IMG/VR virus record: IMGVR_UViG_2695420793_000010
Length of the DNA: 9,214 nucleotides
Source of the DNA: a virus
Taxonomy: Duplodnaviria > Heunggongvirae > Uroviricota > Caudoviricetes
Reading direction: 5' to 3' (one strand)
The notes beneath the pieces are model-generated. The model made no database searches, was not told where the DNA came from, and saw only the letters and a program-made list of their open reading frames with translations. The position numbers and the translations under genes were made by a program. Numbering within the stretch: position 1 is the first letter of the stretch; each line of letters opens with the position of its first letter. Below, one piece after another: positions 1-9,214 of this stretch.

Positions 1-112
1 TCTGAGGCAGCACCTGGCACGGCTGGGACGGAAGTCGCTGTCGTTCTCAAAATCGGTGGAGCTGCATGACAAAGTCATCGGGCATTATCTGAACATAAAA
101 CACTATCAATAA
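1..112 (+). CDS. insB: IS1 transposase InsB, C-terminal fragment (partial at window edge)
   Basis: Translation matches the same InsB C-terminus as the 125-aa minus-strand ORF at 8821..9198; stop TAA at 110..112. Confidence 0.85.
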
Positions 113-127
113 GTTGGAGTCATTACC
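1..127 (+). mobile_element. IS1: IS1 right end (partial): 3' end of insB plus terminal inverted repeat ending at 127 (…aagttggagtcattacc); element body lies left of the window
   Basis: Frame-2 translation 2..112 gives [36 protein letters not shown], the InsB C-terminus; 105..127 is the reverse complement of the IS1 terminal repeat GGTAATGACTCCAACTTATTGAT. Confidence 0.9.
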
Positions 128-186
128 CTTCTTTCCTTCTTCGAACCAAACCGTGTACACCATCCGTTATCTGCGGAGGTGAGGCT

Positions 187-402
187 ATGAAATCCATGGA
201 TAAGTTAACAACGGGCATCGCCTACAGCACCTCTGCAGGCAGTGCTGGCTACTGGTTTTTACAGTTGCTCGATAAAGTCACGCCCTCACAGTGGGCGGCA
301 ATAGGTGTGCTGGGTAGCCTGGTATTTGGCCTGCTGACGTACCTGACAAACCTTTATTTCAAGATTAAAGAAGATAAGCGCAAGGCTGCGAGAGGTGAAT
401 AA
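187..402 (+). CDS. Class II holin, phage 21 S-like pinholin (71 aa) with dual-start motif
   Basis: MKSMDK… has Met1-Lys-Ser-Met4 (antiholin/holin dual start); GGAGGT at 176..181 five nt before the ATG; 71 aa; stop overlaps the endolysin start (TAATG). Confidence 0.9.
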
Positions 403-899
403 TGCCTCCATCATTACGAAAAGCCGTTGCTGCTGCTATTGGTGGCGGAGCAATTGCTATAGCATCAGTGTTAATTACTGGCCCAAGTGGTAACGATGGT
501 CTGGAAGGTGTCAGCTACATACCATACAAAGATATTGTTGGTGTATGGACTGTATGTCACGGGCATACAGGAAAAGACATCATGTTCGGTAAAACGTATA
601 CCAAAGCAGAATGCAAAGCCCTCCTGAATAAAGACCTTGCCACGGTCGCCAGACAAATTAACCCGTACATCAAAGTCGATATACCGGAAACAATGCGCGG
701 CGCTCTTTACTCATTCGTTTACAACGTGGGTGCTGGCAATTTCAGAACATCGACGCTTCTTCGCAAAATAAACCAGGGCGATATCAAAGGCGCATGTGAT
801 CAGCTACGTCGCTGGACATATGCTGGCGGTAAGCAATGGAAAGGTCTCATGACTCGTCGTGAGATTGAGCGTGAAATCTGTTTGTGGGGTCAGCAATGA
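402..899 (+). CDS. SAR endolysin (T4-lysozyme-fold, phage 21 R-like), 165 aa
   Basis: Gly/Ala-rich N-terminal signal-anchor-release segment ([20 protein letters not shown]) followed by a lysozyme domain with E…D…T spacing; start overlaps holin stop, stop overlaps Rz start (ATGA). Confidence 0.9.
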
Positions 900-1357
900 A
901 CAGAGTAACCGCGATTATCTCCGCTCTGGTTATCTGCATCATCGTCGGCCTGTCATGGGCTGTTAATCATTACCGTGATAACGCCATTACCTACAAAGCC
1001 CAGCGCGACAAAAATGCCAGAGAACTGAAGCTGGCGAACGCGGCAATTACTGACATGCAGATGCGTCAGCGTGATGTTGCTGCGCTCGATGCAAAATACA
1101 CGAAGGAGTTAGCTGATGCGAAAGCTGAAAATGATGCTCTGCGTGATGATGTTGCCGCTGGTCGTCGTCGGTTGCACATCAAAGCAGTCTGTCAGTCAGT
1201 GCGTGAAGCCACCACCGCCTCCGGCGTGGATAATGCAGCCTCCCCCCGACTGGCAGACACCGCTGAACGGGATTATTTCACCCTCAGAGAGAGGCTGATC
1301 ACTATGCAAAAACAACTGGAAGGAACCCAGAAGTATATTAATGAGCAGTGCAGATAG
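896..1357 (+). CDS. Rz: Rz i-spanin (inner-membrane spanin subunit), 153 aa from ATG 896
   Basis: N-terminal TM helix then coiled-coil-like charged region; position right after the endolysin; ATG 896 overlaps endolysin TGA 897..899; the ORF-track start at 884 is a GTG. Confidence 0.85.
1116..1298 (+). CDS. Rz1: Rz1 o-spanin (outer-membrane lipoprotein), 60 aa, embedded in the +1 frame of Rz
   Basis: Signal peptide with lipobox-like VVGC, proline-rich mature part ([16 protein letters not shown]); AAGGAG at 1103..1108 seven nt before the ATG; wholly inside Rz. Confidence 0.8.
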
Positions 1358-1381
1358 AGCTGCCCATATCGATGGGCAGCT
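1358..1381. terminator. Perfect 10-bp inverted repeat (agctgcccat-atcg-atgggcagct) between convergent Rz and bor; candidate bidirectional terminator
   Basis: Read directly: stem 1358..1367 / 1372..1381, 4-nt loop; sits between Rz stop (1357) and bor stop (1389..1391); no clear U-tract. Confidence 0.45.
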
Positions 1382-1388
1382 CATGCAA

Positions 1389-1682
1389 TTATTGTGAGCA
1401 ATACACACGCGCTTCCAGCGGAGTATAAATGCCTAAAGTAATAAAACCGAGCAATCCATTTACGAATGTTTGCTGGGTTTCTGTTTTAACAACATTTTCT
1501 GCGCCGCCACAAATTTTGGCTGCATCAACAGTTTTCTCCTGTCCAATTCCCGAAACGAAGAAGTGATGGGTGATGGTTTCCTTTGGTGTTACTGCTGTCG
1601 GTTTGTTTCCAACAGTAAACGTCTGTTGAGCACATCCTGTAATAAGCATTGCCAGAGCGGCAGAAAACAACATTTTTTTCAT
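1389..1682 (-). CDS. bor: Bor outer-membrane lipoprotein (lambda Bor / Iss family), 97 aa
   Basis: MKKMLFSAALAMLITGC… signal peptide with lipobox LITGC; near-identical to lambda Bor as recalled; AGGA 6 nt before ATG 1682; the 113-aa ORF in the track is an upstream in-frame extension. Confidence 0.9.
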   Translation of the reverse strand: MKKMLFSAALAMLITGCAQQTFTVGNKPTAVTPKETITHHFFVSGIGQEKTVDAAKICGGAENVVKTETQQTFVNGLLGFITLGIYTPLEARVYCSQ

Positions 1683-2168
1683 CTTATTATCCTGCATTGT
1701 TAAAAACGGCAGAATCCTATGTGACAACAATTAAACGATAGTTAAATGGATTGATGAAAATTAAAACTATATAGGTGTACGCTCAGACTATTGGAGGAAG
1801 TTGGGGACACTCAGAATCCTGTGGAATGAAATAAACCGGTCTATCCGTCTATTACCCTTTTAGCTGCGCTGTATCGTCGCCGTATTCCCGTATTAACAGA
1901 GACCGTAGCCCGACGGGGAACTCCTTCTGCGCGAGTATGCGGGAATAATCAAAAACGATGCACACCGGGTTTTTACCGCGTTTATGGTTCGCGGGTTTGT
2001 CCCTCATGCTCGCCAGTCCTGTGCGGGGGTGGAAGAAACAGGACACTTACACAGATTCTTGTGGGCACGATGCTATGCCTTTCTGGATTATCCCGATGCC
2101 ATTCATGCAAGGCGTTGTATCAGACGTTCGTCAGAGCTGTCAGGCTGACGGGTCCTCCCGGTGGGGTG

Positions 2169-2200
2169 GCCTGCCACGGGGCGGGAGCGTCGCGGAAAAA
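2169..2200 (+). other. cos site core (cosN-like): acg|gggcgggagcgt|cgcgg, resembling lambda acg|GGGCGGCGACCT|cgcgg
   Basis: Candidate 12-nt cohesive-end segment at 2179..2190; lies about 196 nt before the small-terminase start, as in lambda (about 190 nt); comparison is against the lambda sequence from memory. Confidence 0.5.
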
Positions 2201-2362
2201 GGCTAGTTTTTGCATTTCCATGGCGGCGGCAGCATGTTTGGTAATTTATTGATAATTAAAAGTTATTTCTCTTTTCAGCTGTACAATATTTTTTTCTCCC
2301 TGTCATTAGACTAGTTTGCAATTAATTGAAATATATAAATAAACCTGATTTTCACCTGCCAG
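2201..2362 (+). promoter_or_regulatory. cosB-like region: IHF-consensus site (minus strand, about 2242..2254, TATCAATAAATTA) flanked by three TTTC-N-CC-type repeats (about 2215, 2294, 2351)
   Basis: Matches WATCAANNNNTTR; the repeat spacing relative to cosN mirrors the lambda R3-I1-R2-R1 layout; loose pattern match only. Confidence 0.3.
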
Positions 2363-2374
2363 ATGGAGTTGCTT

Positions 2375-2902
2375 ATGTCAAATGTGAGCGGGATCGGTGA
2401 TGCTTATTACTGGAGTGTTTTTAAAATCGCCGAGGCCTTTGGGCTTCACCGGGACACAGTAAAAAAACGGCTCCTCGCGGCCAACACTCCTGTGGCTGCG
2501 ACTGTCAGGGGGAACCCCGTTTACGCCCTGCAGCATGTCGGGCCCGCCCTGTTTAGTGTGAAGCATGAGGCAGCAGACTCTGTTCATGATCCATCCCGTA
2601 TGGAGCCGAAAGAGAGAAAGGACTGGTACCAGTCTGAAAATGAAAGGATCAAGCTGGAAAAGGAGCAGCGAAAACTCATCCCAGTTGATGAAGTAGTCAT
2701 CGTCTATTCGTCCATGAGAAAGGCTGTCGTCCAGGTTCTGGAGACAATTCCGGATGTTCTTGAACGCGATTGCGCCCTGACTCCTCAGGCCGTCGGCGTT
2801 GTACAGCAGGCCATTGATGACCTGCGATACACTCTTCAGGAAAAATCCTACGAGGCTTGTGCTGCTGAATTAATTCCTGATGAGGAAGGAGAGAGTCTCT
2901 AG
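2375..2902 (+). CDS. Terminase small subunit (Nu1-like, winged-HTH DNA-binding N-terminus); possibly NohA/NohD-like
   Basis: GGAG at 2365..2368 six nt before ATG 2375; N-terminal pattern FKIAEAFGLHRDTVKKRL…PV…GNPVY parallels lambda Nu1 IFGASIRTIQNW…PV…GNEVLY; directly upstream of the large terminase; follows the cos site. Confidence 0.7.
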   Translation: MSNVSGIGDAYYWSVFKIAEAFGLHRDTVKKRLLAANTPVAATVRGNPVYALQHVGPALFSVKHEAADSVHDPSRMEPKERKDWYQSENERIKLEKEQRKLIPVDEVVIVYSSMRKAVVQVLETIPDVLERDCALTPQAVGVVQQAIDDLRYTLQEKSYEACAAELIPDEEGESL

Positions 2903-2910
2903 GAGGAATA

Positions 2911-4221
2911 ATGGGTTTTTCATCAGCCCGAAATTTGGGAAGGGACATATCGGCAGGATTTTCCCCACCACGTCGCATGCCGATTTCGGAGGCTGTTAAA
3001 AAATTCATGCGTGTTCCCAAGGGGGCTGGTAACTCGGTGCCATGGGATCCTGAACTGACACCCTACATCATTGAGCCCATGAACTGCCTGGCATCGCGTG
3101 AATACGATGCGGTGATTTTTGTTGGTCCTGCGCGAACAGGGAAGACCATTGGTCTGATCGATGGATGGATTGTCTATACCATCGTTTGCGATCCTTCGGA
3201 CATGCTCGTTGTGCAGATGACCGAAGATAAGGCCCGCGAGCATTCTAAAAAGCGCCTCGACAGAACGTTCAGAAGCAGTGCGGCGGTAAAGAAAAGAATG
3301 AGTCCACGTCGTAACGACAATAATGTCCATGATAAGACGTTCAGGGATGGCTCGTTCCTTAAAATTGGTTGGCCCTCGGTCAACATTATGTCGTCGTCGG
3401 ATTACCGGTTTGTCGCCTTAACCGATTACGACCGTTTTCCGGAGAATATCGACAGCGAGGGTGATGGTTTCTCCCTGGCCTCAAAACGTACCACCACATT
3501 TATGTCCGCCGGGATGACTCTGGTGGAGAGCTCGCCGGGACGTGACATCTGCGACAGCAAATGGCGACGTAAGTCGCCTCATGAAGCGCCACCGACGACT
3601 GGTATTCTTTCCCTTTACAATCGTGGTGACCGCCGCCGCTGGTACTGGCCATGTCCGCACTGCGGTGAATATTTTCAGCCAGCTATGGATGCCATGACCG
3701 GCTACCGTAATGAACCGGATCCCTTTAAAGCCAGTGAGGCGGCGTATCTACTTTGCCCACACTGCAGCGGCATTATCACTGCGGAGAAAAAGCGTGAGCT
3801 CAATAGTGCAGGAGTCTGGTTGCGTGAAGGTCAGGTCATTGATCGTAACGGCAACGTTTCCGGTGAACCGCGCCGCTCCCGTATCGCCAGTTTCTGGATG
3901 GAAGGGCCAGCTGCTGCGTATCAGGCCTGGGCGCAACTGGTTTACAAATTACTGACTGCAGAACAGGAGTATGAAGCGACAGGAAGAGAAGAAACACTCA
4001 GGGCGGTTATCAACACCGACTGGGGATTACCTTATCTTCCCCGCGCCAGCATGGAGCAACGAAAAAGTGAACTGCTTGAGCAGCGGGCAGAGCCAGTTCC
4101 TTCCCGCAGTGTGCCAGATGGCGTTAATTTCCTTGTGGCGACAGTGGATGTGCAGGCGGGACGTCATCGCCGTTTTGTGGTTCAGGTACCGGAGTCGGAA
4201 GTTGCCGGACCCTGCAGATGA
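2911..4221 (+). pseudogene. Terminase large subunit, GpA family, C-terminally truncated (436 aa versus about 640 aa full length)
   Basis: P-loop FVGPARTGKT, CPHCGE…LCPHC zinc-finger-like motifs and an INTDWG…VDVQ segment align with lambda gpA up to the start of the nuclease domain; AGGAGGA RBS at 2901..2907; ORF ends where the tail-fibre fragment begins. Confidence 0.8.
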
Positions 4222-5024
4222 AGGCGCATTACAGAAATGGTGGTCTGTTCTACCGTTCTTCAAGAGACGGTTATGGTTTTGAGGAAGGCTGGGCAGAAGT
4301 TTATACCTCGAAAAATCTTCCACCAGAAAGCTACCCAGTCGGCGCACCAATCCCGTGGCCATCAGATACCGTTCCGTCTGGTTATGCCCTGATGCAGGGG
4401 CAGACTTTTGACAAATCTGCCTACCCGAAACTTGCAGCCGCTTATCCGTCAGGCGTGATCCCTGATATGCGTGGCTGGACGATTAAGGGCAAACCTGCCA
4501 GTGGTCGGGCCGTATTGTCTCAGGAACAGGACGGCATTAAATCGCACACCCACAGCGCCAGCGCATCCAGTACGGATTTGGGGACGAAAACCACATCGTC
4601 GTTTGATTACGGAACCAAATCCACGAATAACACCGGGGCGCATACCCATAGTATTAGCGGGACCGCAAATAGTGCCGGTGCGCACCAACACAAGAGTTCC
4701 GGTGCATTTGGTGGCACGAACACGAGCATTTTCCCTAATGGTTATACCGCGATTTCAAATCTAAGCGCGGGGATTATGAGCACAACAAGCGGTAGTGGCC
4801 AGACTCGTAATGCAGGGAAGACATCATCAGATGGTGCTCATACCCACTCGCTGTCCGGCACTGCTGCAAGCGCAGGCGCACATGCACATACTGTCGGTAT
4901 TGGTGCTCATACGCACTCCGTTGCGATTGGCTCACATGGACACACCATCACCGTTAACGCTGCTGGTAACGCGGAAAACACCGTCAAAAACATCGCATTT
5001 AACTATATTGTGAGGCTTGCATAA
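4218..5024 (+). pseudogene. stf: Side tail fibre protein (Stf), C-terminal fragment only (268 aa ORF)
   Basis: …[11 protein letters not shown]…[49 protein letters not shown]…[31 protein letters not shown] matches the lambda Stf C-terminal region as recalled; the N-terminal fibre shaft is absent. Confidence 0.8.
4530..4960 (+). repeat. Histidine-rich repeat units (GAHTHS / GAHAHT / GSHGHT) inside the Stf C-terminal domain
   Basis: Repeated HxH motifs visible in the translation and as reiterated ggtgc(t/a)ca(t/c)ac(c/g)cac DNA units. Confidence 0.5.
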
Positions 5025-5605
5025 TGGCATTCAGAATGAGTGAACAAGCACGGACCATAAAAATTTATAATCTGCTGGCCGGAACTAATGAATTTATTGG
5101 TGAAGGTGACGCATATATTCCGCCTCATACAGGTCTGCCAGCAAACAGTACCGATATTGCACCACCAGATATTCCGGCAGGCTTCGTGGCTGTTTTCAAC
5201 AGTGATGAGGCATCGTGGCATCTCGTTGAAGACCATCGGGGTAAAACGGTTTATGACGTGGCTTCCGGCGACGCGTTATTTATTTCTGAACTCGGTCCGT
5301 TACCGGAAAATGTTACCTGGTTGTCGCCGGGAGGGGAATATCAGAAGTGGAACGGCACAGCCTGGGTGAAGGATACGGAAGCAGAAAAACTGTTCCGGAT
5401 CCGGGAGGCAGAAGAAACAAAAAACAGCCTGATGCAGGTAGCCAGTGAGCATATTGCGCCACTTCAGGATGCTGTAGATCTGGAAATCGCAACGGAGGAA
5501 GAAATCTCGTTGCTGGAAGCCTGGAAGAAGTATCGGGTGTTGCTGAACCGTGTTAATACAACAACTGCACCGGATATTGAATGGCCAGTAGCACCTATAG
5601 GGTAA
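5024..5605 (+). CDS. tfa: Tail fibre assembly protein Tfa (193 aa)
   Basis: [54 protein letters not shown]… closely matches lambda Tfa as recalled; start overlaps stf stop (TAATG). Confidence 0.9.
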
Positions 5606-5869
5606 ATTCGTAATGATTACCTAAATACGTTATTCTTTTGTTCAAAAAGTGATTTTGCTATAGGTAGGGAGTATGTTCTTGGATTAAGAATAAAAATCGC
5701 CATGAAAGAGCTTCATGGCGAGTACATAAACGTACAAAATATGATGAAAGTAGAGTGGCGTAAGCCACTATATTAAGATATGACAATAGCGAAGAAAAGT
5801 AAATAACATTTTATGGGCGTTTAATTGTCAATTATAAAAACTAGAGTGCCCGATATTGTTTATCTTGCT

Positions 5870-5971
5870 TTAAAATAATGTACTCAAACCAAATTTTTGA
5901 GCTAAAAGCTCAAATAATATAAATGCAATGATAATGTTTAATAAGACAATTAGCTTGCTTTGTATTTTCAT
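5870..5971 (-). CDS. Hypothetical 33-aa hydrophobic peptide (MKIQSKLIVLLNIIIAFILFELLAQKFGLSTLF); speculative
   Basis: ATG-initiated ORF translated by hand from the minus strand; one predicted TM-like core; no Shine-Dalgarno; AT-rich context makes chance ORFs likely. Confidence 0.1.
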   Translation of the reverse strand: MKIQSKLIVLLNIIIAFILFELLAQKFGLSTLF

Positions 5972-6142
5972 TTCGGAATACTGTTAAGTAACTTTGATGA
6001 CACTAACAATAGATCGGAATTTTCTTAGAGTCAATGGTCACTGTTTTTGCTTGCAAAGCAAATGTTTTTGGTGGTTATAAGTTTTCTTAATATAGTCACC
6101 TATGCAACTTGTTCCTTGTGGAGATTAAAGGTTAAAATTTAA

Positions 6143-6292
6143 TGCGAAGATGGAATTATAATATATTTTTTTATAATTAATTTAACCTTAACATCGTTGC
6201 TGGCGGCATGGAAGAAATATCGGGTCTTGCTGATGTCGTGTTGGCACTTCCTTAGTGCGGTTATCGAATGGCCAGCTGTACCTGTGGGGTAA
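6143..6292 (+). pseudogene. Decayed 3' remnant of a second tfa-like gene (encodes …[32 protein letters not shown])
   Basis: About 100 nt (6190..6292) align to the 3' end of tfa (5500..5605); translated tail parallels Tfa …[32 protein letters not shown]; no in-frame ATG, upstream frame closed at 6140..6142. Confidence 0.6.
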
Positions 6293-6424
6293 AAACTTTA
6301 TATGGGTGCTATTTTTATAATAGCTGGTAAAAACTGGCCGAACTGAAATTCACTGTTGATAAAAAAGATGTGTTTGAGTGTATGTCATTGTTTTCTTAAT
6401 GGAATCCACTAGAATGCAGCGAAT

Positions 6425-6622
6425 TTAAGAAGGTGGGTTTTTATTGGAATATAAACTACAATAATGCTCAACTCGTTCGTAGAATTGTTTTTTCTTATTT
6501 TTTGGAATGCTAACCATTATATGCATTATGGGGGCGATACTTCCTGATAATTTACATGATGCATACATTGAAGCAATAAATTCAATATCATTGTCATCAA
6601 AGTTAAAGCTTTCTCCGTCCAT
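6425..6622 (-). CDS. Hypothetical small protein (65 aa), acidic N-terminus; low-confidence
   Basis: ATG at 6622 preceded by AAGGA with a 6-nt spacer; no recognisable family; sits in AT-rich DNA. Confidence 0.2.
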   Translation of the reverse strand: MDGESFNFDDNDIEFIASMYASCKLSGSIAPIMHIMVSIPKNKKKQFYERVEHYCSLYSNKNPPS

Positions 6623-6947
6623 TTCAATTCCTTATGTGTTTGGCACAACTGATGCTGTATCCCATGAGAATTTATGCAAGTTGTTATGTTTGATTTGATA
6701 TTGCAATGATAATTGTAGCTAATTGTTTTCAATTGAGTGAAAGTTTATTTCGAGTGATTAAGTCGAAAAAAAAGATTTCTCACGGTTAGTAAGCGTATTA
6801 GGTTAGTATTCAGATATGAATGGTATTAATGACTAAATTTTCAATCATATATGGATTTTTATGCTGATGAAGATGTTTTATTTGGCGATTCGTCAAGCAT
6901 CTTCACTTAAGTAATCGTATATTTTAAGAGTGCAAAAGAGAAAGGGA

Positions 6948-7050
6948 CAACGTTGCTCGCACTCTGGATTAAATATAGGGTGTTGTTAAACTGCGTTGAT
7001 ACATAATTGTACCGGATATTGAGTGGTCTGAAGTCCCAGTCATTAAGTAA
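6948..7050 (+). pseudogene. Second decayed tfa 3' remnant (…LLALWIKYRVLLNCVDT* then frameshift …VPDIEWSEVPVIK*)
   Basis: Nucleotide and translated similarity to the tfa 3' end ([11 protein letters not shown]…[10 protein letters not shown]); in-frame stop at 7004..7006 and a frame change before the last block. Confidence 0.5.
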
Positions 7051-7338
7051 TCGTTTCGTGATATGCCGCAGAAACGTTGTATGCAATAACGTTCTGCGGT
7101 TGGCTGATGCACTTTCGAGAGTGTATTGAATAATTTCAATCCGTTATTGTTTTTACGCGTAACACCATGAAAAGACTGCTTATCTGTTGGGGTATTTTTT
7201 GGGGCATATATGGGACAGAAATAGGCCACAGATAGATAGTAAGATCGAACTCAGGATGCTTTTGAAAAAATGTAACTATCTGAAAAAACCTAGAAAGCGC
7301 CAAGGAAACCACAGAATGAGAAAAAACATCTGTGAATT

Positions 7339-8622
7339 ATGGATTTCCAGTTATATTCGCTCGGCGCAGCGTTGGTGTTTCATGAAATATTTTTTCCTGA
7401 ATCATCAACGGCAATGGCGTTAATTTTGGCAATGGGAACCTACGGTGCAGGTTATGTGGCGCGTATTGTCGGAGCATTTATTTTCGGCAAAATGGGCGAC
7501 AGAATAGGGCGTAAAAAAGTGCTCTTTATTACCATCACCATGATGGGGATCTGTACCACCTTAATTGGTGTGTTACCGACCTATGCACAGATTGGTGTTT
7601 TTGCCCCCATCTTGCTGGTGACGCTGCGTATTATTCAGGGGTTGGGTGCAGGTGCGGAAATTTCCGGTGCCGGTACGATGCTGGCGGAATATGCACCAAA
7701 AGGTAAGCGCGGAATTATCTCCTCATTTGTAGCTATGGGAACTAACTGCGGAACCTTGAGCGCAACGGCAATCTGGGCCTTTATGTTCTTCATTCTCAGT
7801 AAAGAGGAACTGCTGGCGTGGGGATGGCGTATACCGTTCCTGGCGAGCGTTGTCGTGATGGTCTTTGCTATCTGGTTACGTATGAATCTGAAAGAAAGCC
7901 CGGTCTTTGAGAAGGTTAATGACAGCAACCAACCCACAGCAAAACCTGCACCTGCTGGTAGCATGTTCCAGAGCAAATCCTTCTGGCTGGCAACAGGGCT
8001 GCGTTTTGGTCAGGCGGGTAACTCCGGGTTAATTCAGACTTTCCTTGCAGGCTATTTAGTGCAGACGTTATTGTTTAACAAAGCAATTCCAACAGATGCA
8101 TTGATGATTAGTTCGATTCTCGGCTTTATGACCATTCCGTTCCTTGGTTGGTTATCCGATAAAATTGGTCGCCGGATCCCGTATATTATTATGAATACCT
8201 CCGCGATTGTGCTGGCATGGCCAATGCTTTCTATCATTGTAGATAAAAGCTATGCCCCGAGCACCATTATGATTGCACTGATTGTGATTCATAACTGTGC
8301 GGTGCTGGGATTATTTGCTCTGGAAAACATTACCATGGCAGAAATGTTCGGCTGTAAAAACCGCTTTACCCGGATGGCCATTTCTAAAGAAATTGGTGGT
8401 CTTATCGCTTCCGGTTTTGGTCCTATCCTGGCGGGTATTTTCTGCACCATGACGGAATCCTGGTATCCGATCGCCATTATGATCATGGCATATTCAGTGA
8501 TTGGTTTAATCTCTGCGCTGAAAATGCCAGAAGTGAAAGACCGTGATTTAAGTGCGCTGGAAGACGCTGCGGAAGATCAACCGCGTGTTGTAAGAGCTGC
8601 GCAACCTTCCAGAAGTCTGTAA
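7339..8622 (+). CDS. ydfJ: MFS transporter, metabolite:H+ symporter family (ProP/ShiA/KgtP-like), YdfJ-like; 5' end probably disrupted
   Basis: 427-aa ORF with MFS signature GKMGDRIGRKK between predicted TM2 and TM3 and WGWRIPF motif; aligns to ProP/ShiA starting at their W-F/Y-D-F motif, so the N-terminal segment is short; no SD before ATG 7339. Confidence 0.85.
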   Translation: MDFQLYSLGAALVFHEIFFPESSTAMALILAMGTYGAGYVARIVGAFIFGKMGDRIGRKKVLFITITMMGICTTLIGVLPTYAQIGVFAPILLVTLRIIQGLGAGAEISGAGTMLAEYAPKGKRGIISSFVAMGTNCGTLSATAIWAFMFFILSKEELLAWGWRIPFLASVVVMVFAIWLRMNLKESPVFEKVNDSNQPTAKPAPAGSMFQSKSFWLATGLRFGQAGNSGLIQTFLAGYLVQTLLFNKAIPTDALMISSILGFMTIPFLGWLSDKIGRRIPYIIMNTSAIVLAWPMLSIIVDKSYAPSTIMIALIVIHNCAVLGLFALENITMAEMFGCKNRFTRMAISKEIGGLIASGFGPILAGIFCTMTESWYPIAIMIMAYSVIGLISALKMPEVKDRDLSALEDAAEDQPRVVRAAQPSRSL

Positions 8623-8631
8623 ATCCTCAAT

Positions 8632-8662
8632 CCCTTCTCTTACCGGAGAGGGGATTTTTATT
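8632..8662 (+). terminator. Rho-independent terminator candidate after the MFS gene (cccttctc-ttaccg-gagagggg then atttttatt)
   Basis: 8-bp stem with one G-U pair, 6-nt loop, followed by a T-rich run; 10 nt after the stop codon. Confidence 0.5.
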
Positions 8663-8710
8663 CATATAACAAAACATGTAGCTTGCCATATTTAAATTTA
8701 AGGAATTGTT

Positions 8711-8805
8711 ATGGGAAATAATTTGTTATCAGCAAAAGCGACACTCCCTGTTTATGATCGTAATAACCTGGCCCCAAGAATTGTTCATTTAGGCTTTGGT
8801 GCATT
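8711..8805 (+). pseudogene. ydfI: 5' fragment of a mannitol-dehydrogenase-family oxidoreductase (YdfI/UxuB-like), cut by IS1 after about 32 codons
   Basis: [31 protein letters not shown]| matches the family N-terminus (…RIVHLGCGAFHRAHQ… in UxuB); TAAGGA RBS at 8699..8704; the frame runs into the IS1 terminal repeat at 8806. Confidence 0.6.
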
Positions 8806-9214
8806 GGTAATGACTCCAACTTACTGATAGTGTTTTATGTTCAGATAATGCCCGATGACCTTGTCATGCAGCTCCACCGATTTTGAGAACGACAGTGACT
8901 TCCGTCCCAGCCTTGCCAGATGTTGTCTCAGATTCAGGTTATGCCGCTCAATTCGCTGAGTGTAACGCTTGCTGATTACGTGCAGCTTTCCCTTCAGGCG
9001 GGATTCATACAGCGGCCAGCCATCCGTCATCCATACCACGACCTCAAAGGCCGACAGCAGGCTTAGAAGACGCTCCAGTGTGGCCAGAGTGCGTTCACCG
9101 AATACGTGCGCAACAACCGTCTTCCGGAGCCTGTCATACGCGTAAAACAGCCAGCGCTGGCGCGATTTAGCCCCGACGTATCCCCACTGTTCGTCCATTG
9201 CCGGGCAGCGACGT
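8806..9214 (-). mobile_element. IS1: IS1 (partial, continues past window end), inverted relative to the left IS1; terminal repeat ggtaatgactccaacttactgat at 8806..8828
   Basis: Terminal inverted repeat read directly; encodes the InsB C-terminal region on the minus strand; differs from the left copy at several positions. Confidence 0.9.
8821..9214 (-). CDS. insB: IS1 transposase InsB (partial; N-terminus beyond window end)
   Basis: 125-aa [40 protein letters not shown]…[13 protein letters not shown] is the InsB core and C-terminus; the frame stays open to the window edge. Confidence 0.85.

Follow-up and report, generated by a model that had tools for sequence, protein, structure and literature searches.

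A candidate YncL-like micro-protein gene in the mosaic accessory region of a Qin-type Escherichia coli prophage

What occupies the AT-rich DNA that separates the tail fiber assembly gene tfa from the host gene ydfJ in a decaying prophage, and does any of it still behave like a gene? We addressed this question in a 9,214-nucleotide stretch of viral DNA (IMG/VR record IMGVR_UViG_2695420793_000010; hereafter, the window), which covers the right-hand portion of a Qin-type lambdoid prophage of Escherichia coli that is defective, has undergone heavy deletion, and is integrated in ydfJ. A first-pass annotation, made from the letters of the window, had singled out the 1.7 kb at positions 5606–7338, read 2 remnants of tfa within them as eroded tail fiber cassettes, and suggested that small proteins or RNAs be sought there. 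Our analysis indicates that this stretch is probably a right-end accessory region, the counterpart of the lambda b region, built as a mosaic of exchanged modules that are joined at tfa 3′ ends and at a conserved hairpin, with a moron-type gene for a YncL-like peptide of 33 residues in its first module (module A). As judged from sequence variation, the unit containing this open reading frame (ORF) is the only element of the stretch under evident constraint, and most of the remainder is DNA without demonstrable function, most simply explained as a non-coding mosaic plus an att arm.

To delimit modules, we compared the stretch with a set of 5426 complete E. coli genomes, with 50,697 phage records, and with contigs of IMG/VR. 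Module A is present in 831 of the 5426 genomes (approximately 15%; roughly 940 places in total), always directly 3′ of a tfa gene and followed by varying cargo, and it is also part of the complete genomes of the lambdoid phages mEp332 (host K-12 MG1655), PhiR70_1 (host E. coli C), and ev099. In these 3 phages, a gene for an AraC/AppY-like regulator lies about 0.9 kb past the end of the module; in the urinary isolate E. coli BH100, the module sits between tfa and sitABCD; and in the present window the first of 2 remnants of tfa 3′ ends comes next. The small gene of module A travels with different cargo. None of the 40 RefSeq records listed carries any annotation under module A, and strain K-12 lacks the module. 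A 37-residue ORF annotated in PhiR70_1 at the far end of the module was considered and rejected, as it is not conserved and spans only 22 residues here.

The 33-codon ORF, located on the minus strand of module A, was intact in all 74 copies recovered (55 loci and 19 further metagenome contigs), which together encode 3 peptide variants, and it is intact also in a lineage with a more divergent module A (about 90% identity only). Variation was assessed across 35 distinct module A sequences from 56 loci. Variable sites were fewer within the ORF (7 of 102 nucleotides) than in the flanks (45 of 288; one-sided Fisher p = 0.016), and 5 of the 7 were synonymous, the exceptions being A24D and I18V. Among the transitions, 5 of 6 were synonymous versus 37% expected (p = 0.03). 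Conservation, substitutions of the coding type, and the similarity to YncL described below are direct observations on the sequences at hand. When 1.84 billion representative proteins were searched, the matches were limited to the ORF itself and a single frameshift variant, and no mention of the peptide was found in the searchable literature, where searches with IS009 (the Rfam family matching tfa 3′ ends) and with the phage names yielded nothing useful. A tblastn search of the ORF against phages gave no match, not even in the carrier phages, probably owing to low-complexity masking. In BH100 and several IMG/VR viral contigs, the variant found between tfa and the iron/manganese transporter operon sitABCD is A24D.

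The hint that small proteins deserved a look led to a specific resemblance. Among the NCBIfam models, the 33-residue peptide matches exactly one, YncL (NF000537), with an E-value of 1.3e-5 and a score of 25 bits, and none of ten shuffled or reversed versions of the peptide produced a match. Because this score is below the curated cut-off of the model (35 bits), the peptide is not an equivalog of YncL and would be at most a distant paralogue. BLASTP against the K-12 protein (MNVSSRTVVLINFFAAVGLFTLISMRFGWFI) yielded an ungapped alignment from Met1 to Gly28 with 11 of 28 residues identical (E 2e-7). With a degenerate DNA pattern, we also recovered 14 distinct orthologue sequences (Escherichia, Shigella, Citrobacter, and Intestinirhabdus) and built a YncL profile from them; the phage ORF scored 21.9 bits against it, the best of 20,000 shuffles reached 12.8, and the unrelated membrane protein YnfT scored −0.4. 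The pattern kept in the 14 orthologue sequences, S5, K/R6, N12, A16, L19-F20, and K/R26-F-G, is matched by the phage peptide, and the degenerate family-level DNA pattern found only chromosomal yncL (in the same 4 genera) and the phage ORF.

Comparison with YncL of K-12 (31 residues) shows 2 peptides of near-equal length, each with a single hydrophobic helix (grand average of hydropathy 1.5 versus 1.3), that have in common M1, S5, K/R6, V9, L10, N12 (a polar residue inside the helix), A16, L19, F20, L22, and K/R26-F27-G28. They differ in that identity amounts to 39%, that the C-terminal tail reads GLSTLF in the phage-borne peptide and GWFI in YncL, and that the phage ORF has no Shine-Dalgarno sequence. 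Their genomic settings differ as well: K-12 yncL lies between patD and ortT, whereas the 33-codon ORF is found in phage accessory DNA downstream of tfa. YncL is a stress-induced small inner-membrane protein, induced by minimal medium, by heat shock, and by stationary phase or stress, and its production results in sublethal membrane depolarization, induction of the phage-shock response, reduced protein synthesis, and nucleoid condensation (PMC12542507).

The ORF is preceded by a sigma-70 promoter-like site and followed by a strong intrinsic terminator (5721..5697, with a T-run), both on the minus strand (Table 1). The −10 hexamer is invariant across the 35 distinct copies and the −35 hexamer is changed in one, and the terminator stem is kept across copies. 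As read from the sequence, the 3 elements would make up a unit of the "moron" type. Lambdoid morons, including bor and lom, and the lambda b region are described by Juhala et al. (2000) and Hendrix et al. (2000). Module A has several of their properties. It is inserted between otherwise adjacent genes, with tfa directly followed by ea47 in HK630 and lambda and by module A here and in ev099, mEp332, and PhiR70_1. Its base composition is deviant (28.8% G+C versus 48.5% for tfa), and it carries what appears at the sequence level to be a factor-independent terminator of its own (conserved stem and T-run). The candidate promoter is a consensus match with a conserved −10 hexamer. As in lambdoid morons and the lambda b region, the putative promoter–ORF–terminator unit lies between genes that are neighbors in a related phage (tfa and ea47 in lambda and HK630) and would be transcribed opposite to the late operon; unlike classical morons, it has a far smaller product, is without annotation in the RefSeq records listed, and has a putative promoter. 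A perfect 12-nucleotide inverted repeat (ACTATATTAAGA / TCTTAATATAGT, at 5767–5778 and 6085–6096; 80% over 25 nucleotides) flanks the promoter and ORF with about 306 nucleotides between its arms; it could mark the ends of a small inserted cassette or may mean nothing, with roughly 0.3 such pairs expected by chance.

The same unit could be read as a type I toxin–antitoxin system or a small RNA gene, in which a minus-strand RNA of about 310 nucleotides would either be active itself or specify a toxic peptide whose action is curbed by an antisense RNA. The peptide does resemble Hok, Ldr, and TisB in being small and hydrophobic, the predicted transcript (6000..5688) is more structured than shuffles (fold z = −3.8) and would have a long 3′ untranslated region of about 150 nucleotides, and YncL itself depolarizes membranes (PMC12542507). 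There is also a promoter-like site for an antisense RNA at 5780–5809, but this site, the only one on the plus strand, is poorly conserved, 3 of the 6 positions in the −35 hexamer being variable from copy to copy. An internal hairpin (5896–5914) is broken by A24D in one lineage, the bias toward synonymous changes indicates constraint at the protein rather than the RNA level, and the Rfam scan yielded nothing beyond the tfa-derived IS009. We judge a toxin–antitoxin or small RNA function of the unit to be quite improbable.

Several observations weigh against regarding the ORF as a moron-type YncL-like gene in an exchanged module. Its ATG lacks a Shine-Dalgarno sequence, while AAGGTGG, or a motif close to it, is present in all yncL orthologues; no more than 7 variable sites underlie the substitution statistics; the promoter-like site matches 9 of 12 consensus positions, and such sites are fewer in the region than in shuffles; the match to YncL is below the NCBIfam cut-off; and genome, viral, and metagenome scans revealed no intermediates between the phage ORF and the yncL clades. 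Moreover, the evidence for the ORF is of the sequence level, the main reference for small proteins, K-12, lacks module A, and the recombination history proposed below is read from present-day joints only.

Some of these points would also be accommodated if the entire stretch, the ORF included, were non-functional decay, the ORF having been kept only because the copies are young and were spread by recombination and its likeness to YncL being a convergence of short hydrophobic helices. The prophage has been heavily deleted, with a terminase fragment joined to a tail fiber fragment, and gene callers almost never call the ORF, which belongs to a protein cluster of 2 members. However, module A is found in viable phages; the ORF is intact in 74 of 74 copies, the approximately 90%-identical lineage included; its variation leans toward synonymous changes and is sparser than that of the flanking DNA (p about 0.02–0.05); and the YncL alignment is ungapped and specific to residue order, its score being reached by 0 of 20,000 shuffles. 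Decay of the whole stretch we think rather unlikely.

Under the preferred reading, a moron-type gene within an exchanged module, the YncL-like peptide would be made in the lysogen from its own promoter; its transcription would converge with late transcription and would probably be silenced by read-through of the latter during lytic growth. The peptide would insert into the inner membrane, lower the membrane potential, and shift host stress physiology, and the prophage might gain stress tolerance or the exclusion of other phages. This role is proposed because of the sequence analogy with YncL, and transcription, translation, membrane insertion, and phenotype are predictions of it. A more far-reaching version, in which lambdoid phages carry a dedicated YncL-family gene after tfa that depolarizes the lysogen membrane for the benefit of the phage, with the tfa end and the hairpin acting as portable linkers for cargo, we consider unlikely; partial depolarization would in that case confer superinfection exclusion, abortive infection, stress tolerance, or persistence. 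The ORF can be described at present as an unannotated, conserved candidate gene for a YncL-like micro-protein, modestly novel, that is found in lambdoid phages and in some 15% of complete E. coli genomes. If expressed, it would represent a phage-borne copy of a host stress peptide, and a handle on the function of YncL-type peptides, as well as a further case in which a micro-protein brings about lysogenic conversion. Most mapping of small proteins has been done in K-12. Surveys based on this strain cannot have seen the ORF because K-12 lacks module A, illustrating that K-12-based catalogues of small proteins can miss genes of the accessory genome.

Table 1. Positions of the features of the accessory region, numbered along the window.
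Feature	Position	Strand	Remarks
Tail fiber assembly gene tfa, intact (193 residues)	5024..5605	+	Left boundary and reference for the remnants; RefSeq tfaQ in strain AR_0128
Module A	5606..6184		AT-rich (28.8% G+C) post-tfa module common to viable lambdoid phages and many prophages
Intrinsic terminator (predicted)	5687..5721	-	10–11 bp stem with 5 G-C pairs, then TTTTTATTCT (T-run); about 150 nt downstream of the 33-codon ORF
Candidate unannotated 33-codon gene (coordinates include the stop codon)	5870..5971	-	Predicted YncL-like single-pass membrane protein; MKIQSKLIVLLNIIIAFILFELLAQKFGLSTLF
Sigma-70 promoter-like site TTGACT-17-TATTGT	6006..6034	-	About 30 nt upstream of the 33-codon ORF; from a consensus scan
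tfa 3′-end remnant 1	6191..6293	+	Last 32–33 codons (approximately) plus stop, middle scrambled; direct orientation
Module B	6294..6930		AT-rich DNA known only from this ydfJ-linked locus
65-residue ORF, RefSeq hypothetical protein WP_000348576.1	6425..6622	-	Orphan of unproven gene status; the sole RefSeq gene of the stretch
tfa 3′-end remnant 2	6931..7065	+	Last 38 codons (approximately) with internal stop and frameshift, plus 15 nt of lambda-like post-stop sequence
Conserved G+C-rich hairpin	7066..7099		Inverted repeat; point at which the lambda-like tfa end meets the Qin att arm
Module C	7100..7347		attP-derived arm, now the attR side, ending at the joint with truncated ydfJ

The general picture of the stretch drawn by the first-pass annotation proved largely accurate. 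G+C content drops abruptly after the tfa stop, to 33.4% in 5606–7338 versus 49.9% in 1–5605 and 47.3% in 7339–9214; in 300-nucleotide windows, the fall starts at the stop codon, from 0.51 (5251–5550) to 0.29 (5701–6000). Because its G+C content is 29–38%, the stretch is probably bound and silenced by H-NS. The longest ORF is 86 residues, in agreement with the claim that none exceeds about 90, and tblastn with PinQ and the invertase of phage HannyBb was empty in 5606–7338, in agreement with the claim that no invertase gene is present. None of the ORFs of 33–86 residues had a match in Pfam or PHROGs. The notion that this position commonly holds accessory cargo was borne out too, with related phages carrying here an AraC/AppY-like regulator, sitABCD, a S-adenosylmethionine (SAM) methyltransferase, an alpha/beta hydrolase, or OmpT. 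The scan for structured RNAs that had been suggested was run with Rfam over the whole window (E ≤ 1) and detected no known structured RNA, the only matches being IS009, at tfa 3′ ends, and one spurious hit to a small nucleolar RNA.

The end of the intact tfa gene and the 2 remnants form one repeat family, all on the plus strand. By blastn, remnant 1 (6194–6293) is 74% identical to positions 5507–5606 of the intact gene, and remnant 2 (6951–7026) is 77% identical to 5508–5584; by tblastn, they correspond to Tfa residues 162–193 (E 2e-7) and 156–192 (E 5e-5 to 1e-6, with a stop and a frameshift inside). IS009 scores 229 bits on the intact 3′ end and 41 and 32 bits on the remnants, and in the window only tfa 3′ ends match it. 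The 2 same-orientation remnants had been located at 6190..6292 and about 6948..7050, which is good to about 20 nucleotides; the second is better set at 6931–7050, since the match to lambda and HK630 tfa begins at 6931. This match continues into the lambda sequence downstream of the gene up to 7101 (81% identity), covering beyond the remnant the next 50 nucleotides or so, which in lambda and HK630 are the sequence between tfa and ea47.

By contrast, the claim that the remnants were former alternative tail fiber/tfa cassettes, now eroded, was not supported, as only the last 32–38 codons are left, with 5′ edges that look sharp, in direct orientation, and with no trace of stf or an invertase. A more specific form of this claim would derive the remnants from cassettes switched by an invertase, as in the G segment of Mu, the C segment of P1, e14, or K-12 Qin with its pinQ gene, that eroded once the invertase was lost. 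In K-12 Qin and HannyBb, an invertase gene does lie between tfa and an att arm shared with the window, and the presence of several tfa-related sequences downstream of a tail fiber gene is shared with the invertible segments of Mu (Gin/G), P1 (Cin/C), and e14 (Pin). Yet a Gin/Pin-type cassette would leave the second tfa inverted, whereas both remnants are direct and consist of only the last 100–120 nucleotides or so. Alternative stf ends are missing: no further tfa or stf similarity was detected by tblastn upstream of the remnants, and PinQ, the HannyBb invertase, YdfK, and YnfT had no tblastn match in 5606–7338 at E ≤ 3. Crossover sites are missing as well, with 8 matches to a gix/pix-like core versus 5.3 expected, every one with 2 mismatches, amounting to no signal. 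Finally, remnant 2 and the DNA downstream of it match lambda, which has no inversion system, through the terminator-like hairpin. Leftovers of an invertible segment are in our assessment highly improbable, although the ancestor of module C probably carried an invertase, as Qin and HannyBb do.

Recombination scars at the conserved tfa 3′ end, formed between different phages or prophages, fit the remnants better. We favor this reading because the remnants are direct and consist of only the last 32–38 codons, because there is no invertase and no gix signal, because the right edge of remnant 2 is the shared hairpin at which lambda-like sequence switches to the Qin att arm, and because a comparable layout exists in the viable phage 2G7b. 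In this phage, a methyltransferase cargo gene is followed by partial tfa 3′-end ORFs, that is, by a stranded tfa 3′ fragment after cargo as seen here, and the stretch ahead of the cargo gene matches the remnants too, without a tfa annotation. The DLP12 prophage of K-12, with the layout tfaD-ybcY-tfaX-appY, is a similar case, tfaX being a stranded tfa 3′ fragment after cargo. The scars could have formed by Campbell-type insertion of cargo circles bearing a tfa 3′ end or by deletions between tandem or related prophages. In either case, the modules would have been joined at short conserved "linkers," namely, the last 100–120 nucleotides or so of tfa and the hairpin. The stretch itself is an ordinary, well-understood kind of prophage mosaic, and this settles the idea of an eroded cassette.

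The hairpin is common to lambda, where it lies between tfa and ea47, K-12 Qin, HannyBb, and 2G7b, and BH100 has it as well, after module A. In an alignment of its 8 distinct versions, 12 pairs have 90.6% of cells paired, 3 of the 12 show compensatory changes, and the covariation score was reached by 0 of 500 shuffles. On the minus strand of K-12 Qin and HannyBb, a TTTTT run comes after the hairpin and gives it the appearance of a terminator; the T-run is absent here. The hairpin is located about 250–280 nucleotides from the Qin-type attP core, a distance that resembles that of the lambda tI/sib element downstream of int. By this analogy, it is a candidate terminator or retroregulator of the int transcript.

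Beyond the lambda-like sequence, positions 7066–7347 share 86% identity with the part of K-12 Qin that adjoins ydfJ′ and with phages Tritos, HannyBb, mEp460_ev081, and PhiR42_1, and in HannyBb the segment directly abuts the integrase gene. Phage homology stops at about 7347–7350, after which the window and K-12 run together into ydfJ; module C is therefore an attP-derived arm. The first-pass placement of the accessory DNA next to the prophage–host junction was accordingly correct, the edge at 7338 being essentially the junction. The region between tfa and attR in K-12 Qin shares with the present locus the integration site, the att arm, and a gene for a small single-pass membrane protein (ynfT) on the minus strand at a matching relative place. 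It differs in that pinQ, ydfK, and ynfT are missing here, with modules A and B in their place, and in that YnfT is unrelated to the 33-residue peptide.

Module B was detected in 591 of the 5426 genomes, with best matches at ≥95% identity in 581 and more distant ones (60% to 90%) in 10, and occupies the same chromosomal position in the records listed. It has no phage counterpart, as blastn against phages matched only the tfa remnants. Its 65-residue ORF has an AAGGA Shine-Dalgarno sequence 6 nucleotides ahead of the ATG, and its relatives are near-identical E. coli sequences only, some of them frameshifted. No match was found in Pfam or PHROGs, in phages or plasmids by tblastn, or, at a significant level, by sequence search of PDB. 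Variation within this ORF is neutral-like, with 3 synonymous and 3 nonsynonymous sites at a density equal to that of the flanks. A possible assignment to GlgS was rejected as too weak (E 0.026; 14.5 bits versus a cut-off of 105 bits). A single-sequence AlphaFold2 model predicts a 3-helix bundle (predicted local distance difference test score, 68.6), for which Foldseek against PDB gave nothing significant, the best hit being the theta-like protein Hot (E 0.48). Many of the frameshifted public variants are altered in an A/T homopolymer-rich run at 6490–6505 (KNKKK codons), either by real slippage or by sequencing error. A 63-residue ORF on the plus strand (6507–6698), antisense to the 65-residue ORF, was rejected, having 2 synonymous and 4 nonsynonymous changes. 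Perfect complementarity over 14 nucleotides exists between 5989–6002, in the leader of the transcript predicted for the 33-codon ORF, and 6592–6605, at the coding start of the 65-residue ORF; both arms are on minus-strand RNAs, so that the 2 RNAs could pair. The match is likely due to chance: of the 35 distinct module A sequences, only 4 have A at position 6002, and each of the 2 modules occurs independently of the other.

An identical copy of the 1.7-kb stretch is present in E. coli strain AR_0128, in which the gene order equals that of the ORFs of the window. In RefSeq, the left part of this locus reads essD-rrrD-rzpD, iss/bor, a DUF1441 protein, a truncated terminase, and a truncated tail protein, and the right part tfaQ, one "hypothetical protein," and then ydfJ without its N-terminus. 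K-12 ydfJ is likewise interrupted by prophage Qin, in the order tfaQ-pinQ-ydfK-ynfT-ydfJ′. In the window, an N-terminal fragment of the large terminase subunit (ORF 2911–4221) runs into a C-terminal tail fiber fragment (ORF 4218–5024) with His-x-His/Gly-rich repeats, so that the head and tail genes were apparently lost in a single large deletion that created a terminase′–′stf joint near 4200. No lambda cos was found. Just downstream of the truncated ydfJ lies an IS1 InsB-type ORF (8821–9198, minus strand), where AR_0128 has ydfI instead. In other strains, IS1 or IS903B is found within the 1.7-kb stretch, and in strain LR-64-1 an IS5-family transposase gene is located immediately upstream of a truncated version of it. 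At the left end of the window, a lipoprotein-like, proline-rich ORF (1116–1298), which is not annotated at the AR_0128 locus, lies out of frame within the Rz-type gene (884–1357) and is presumably the usual Rz1/o-spanin partner.

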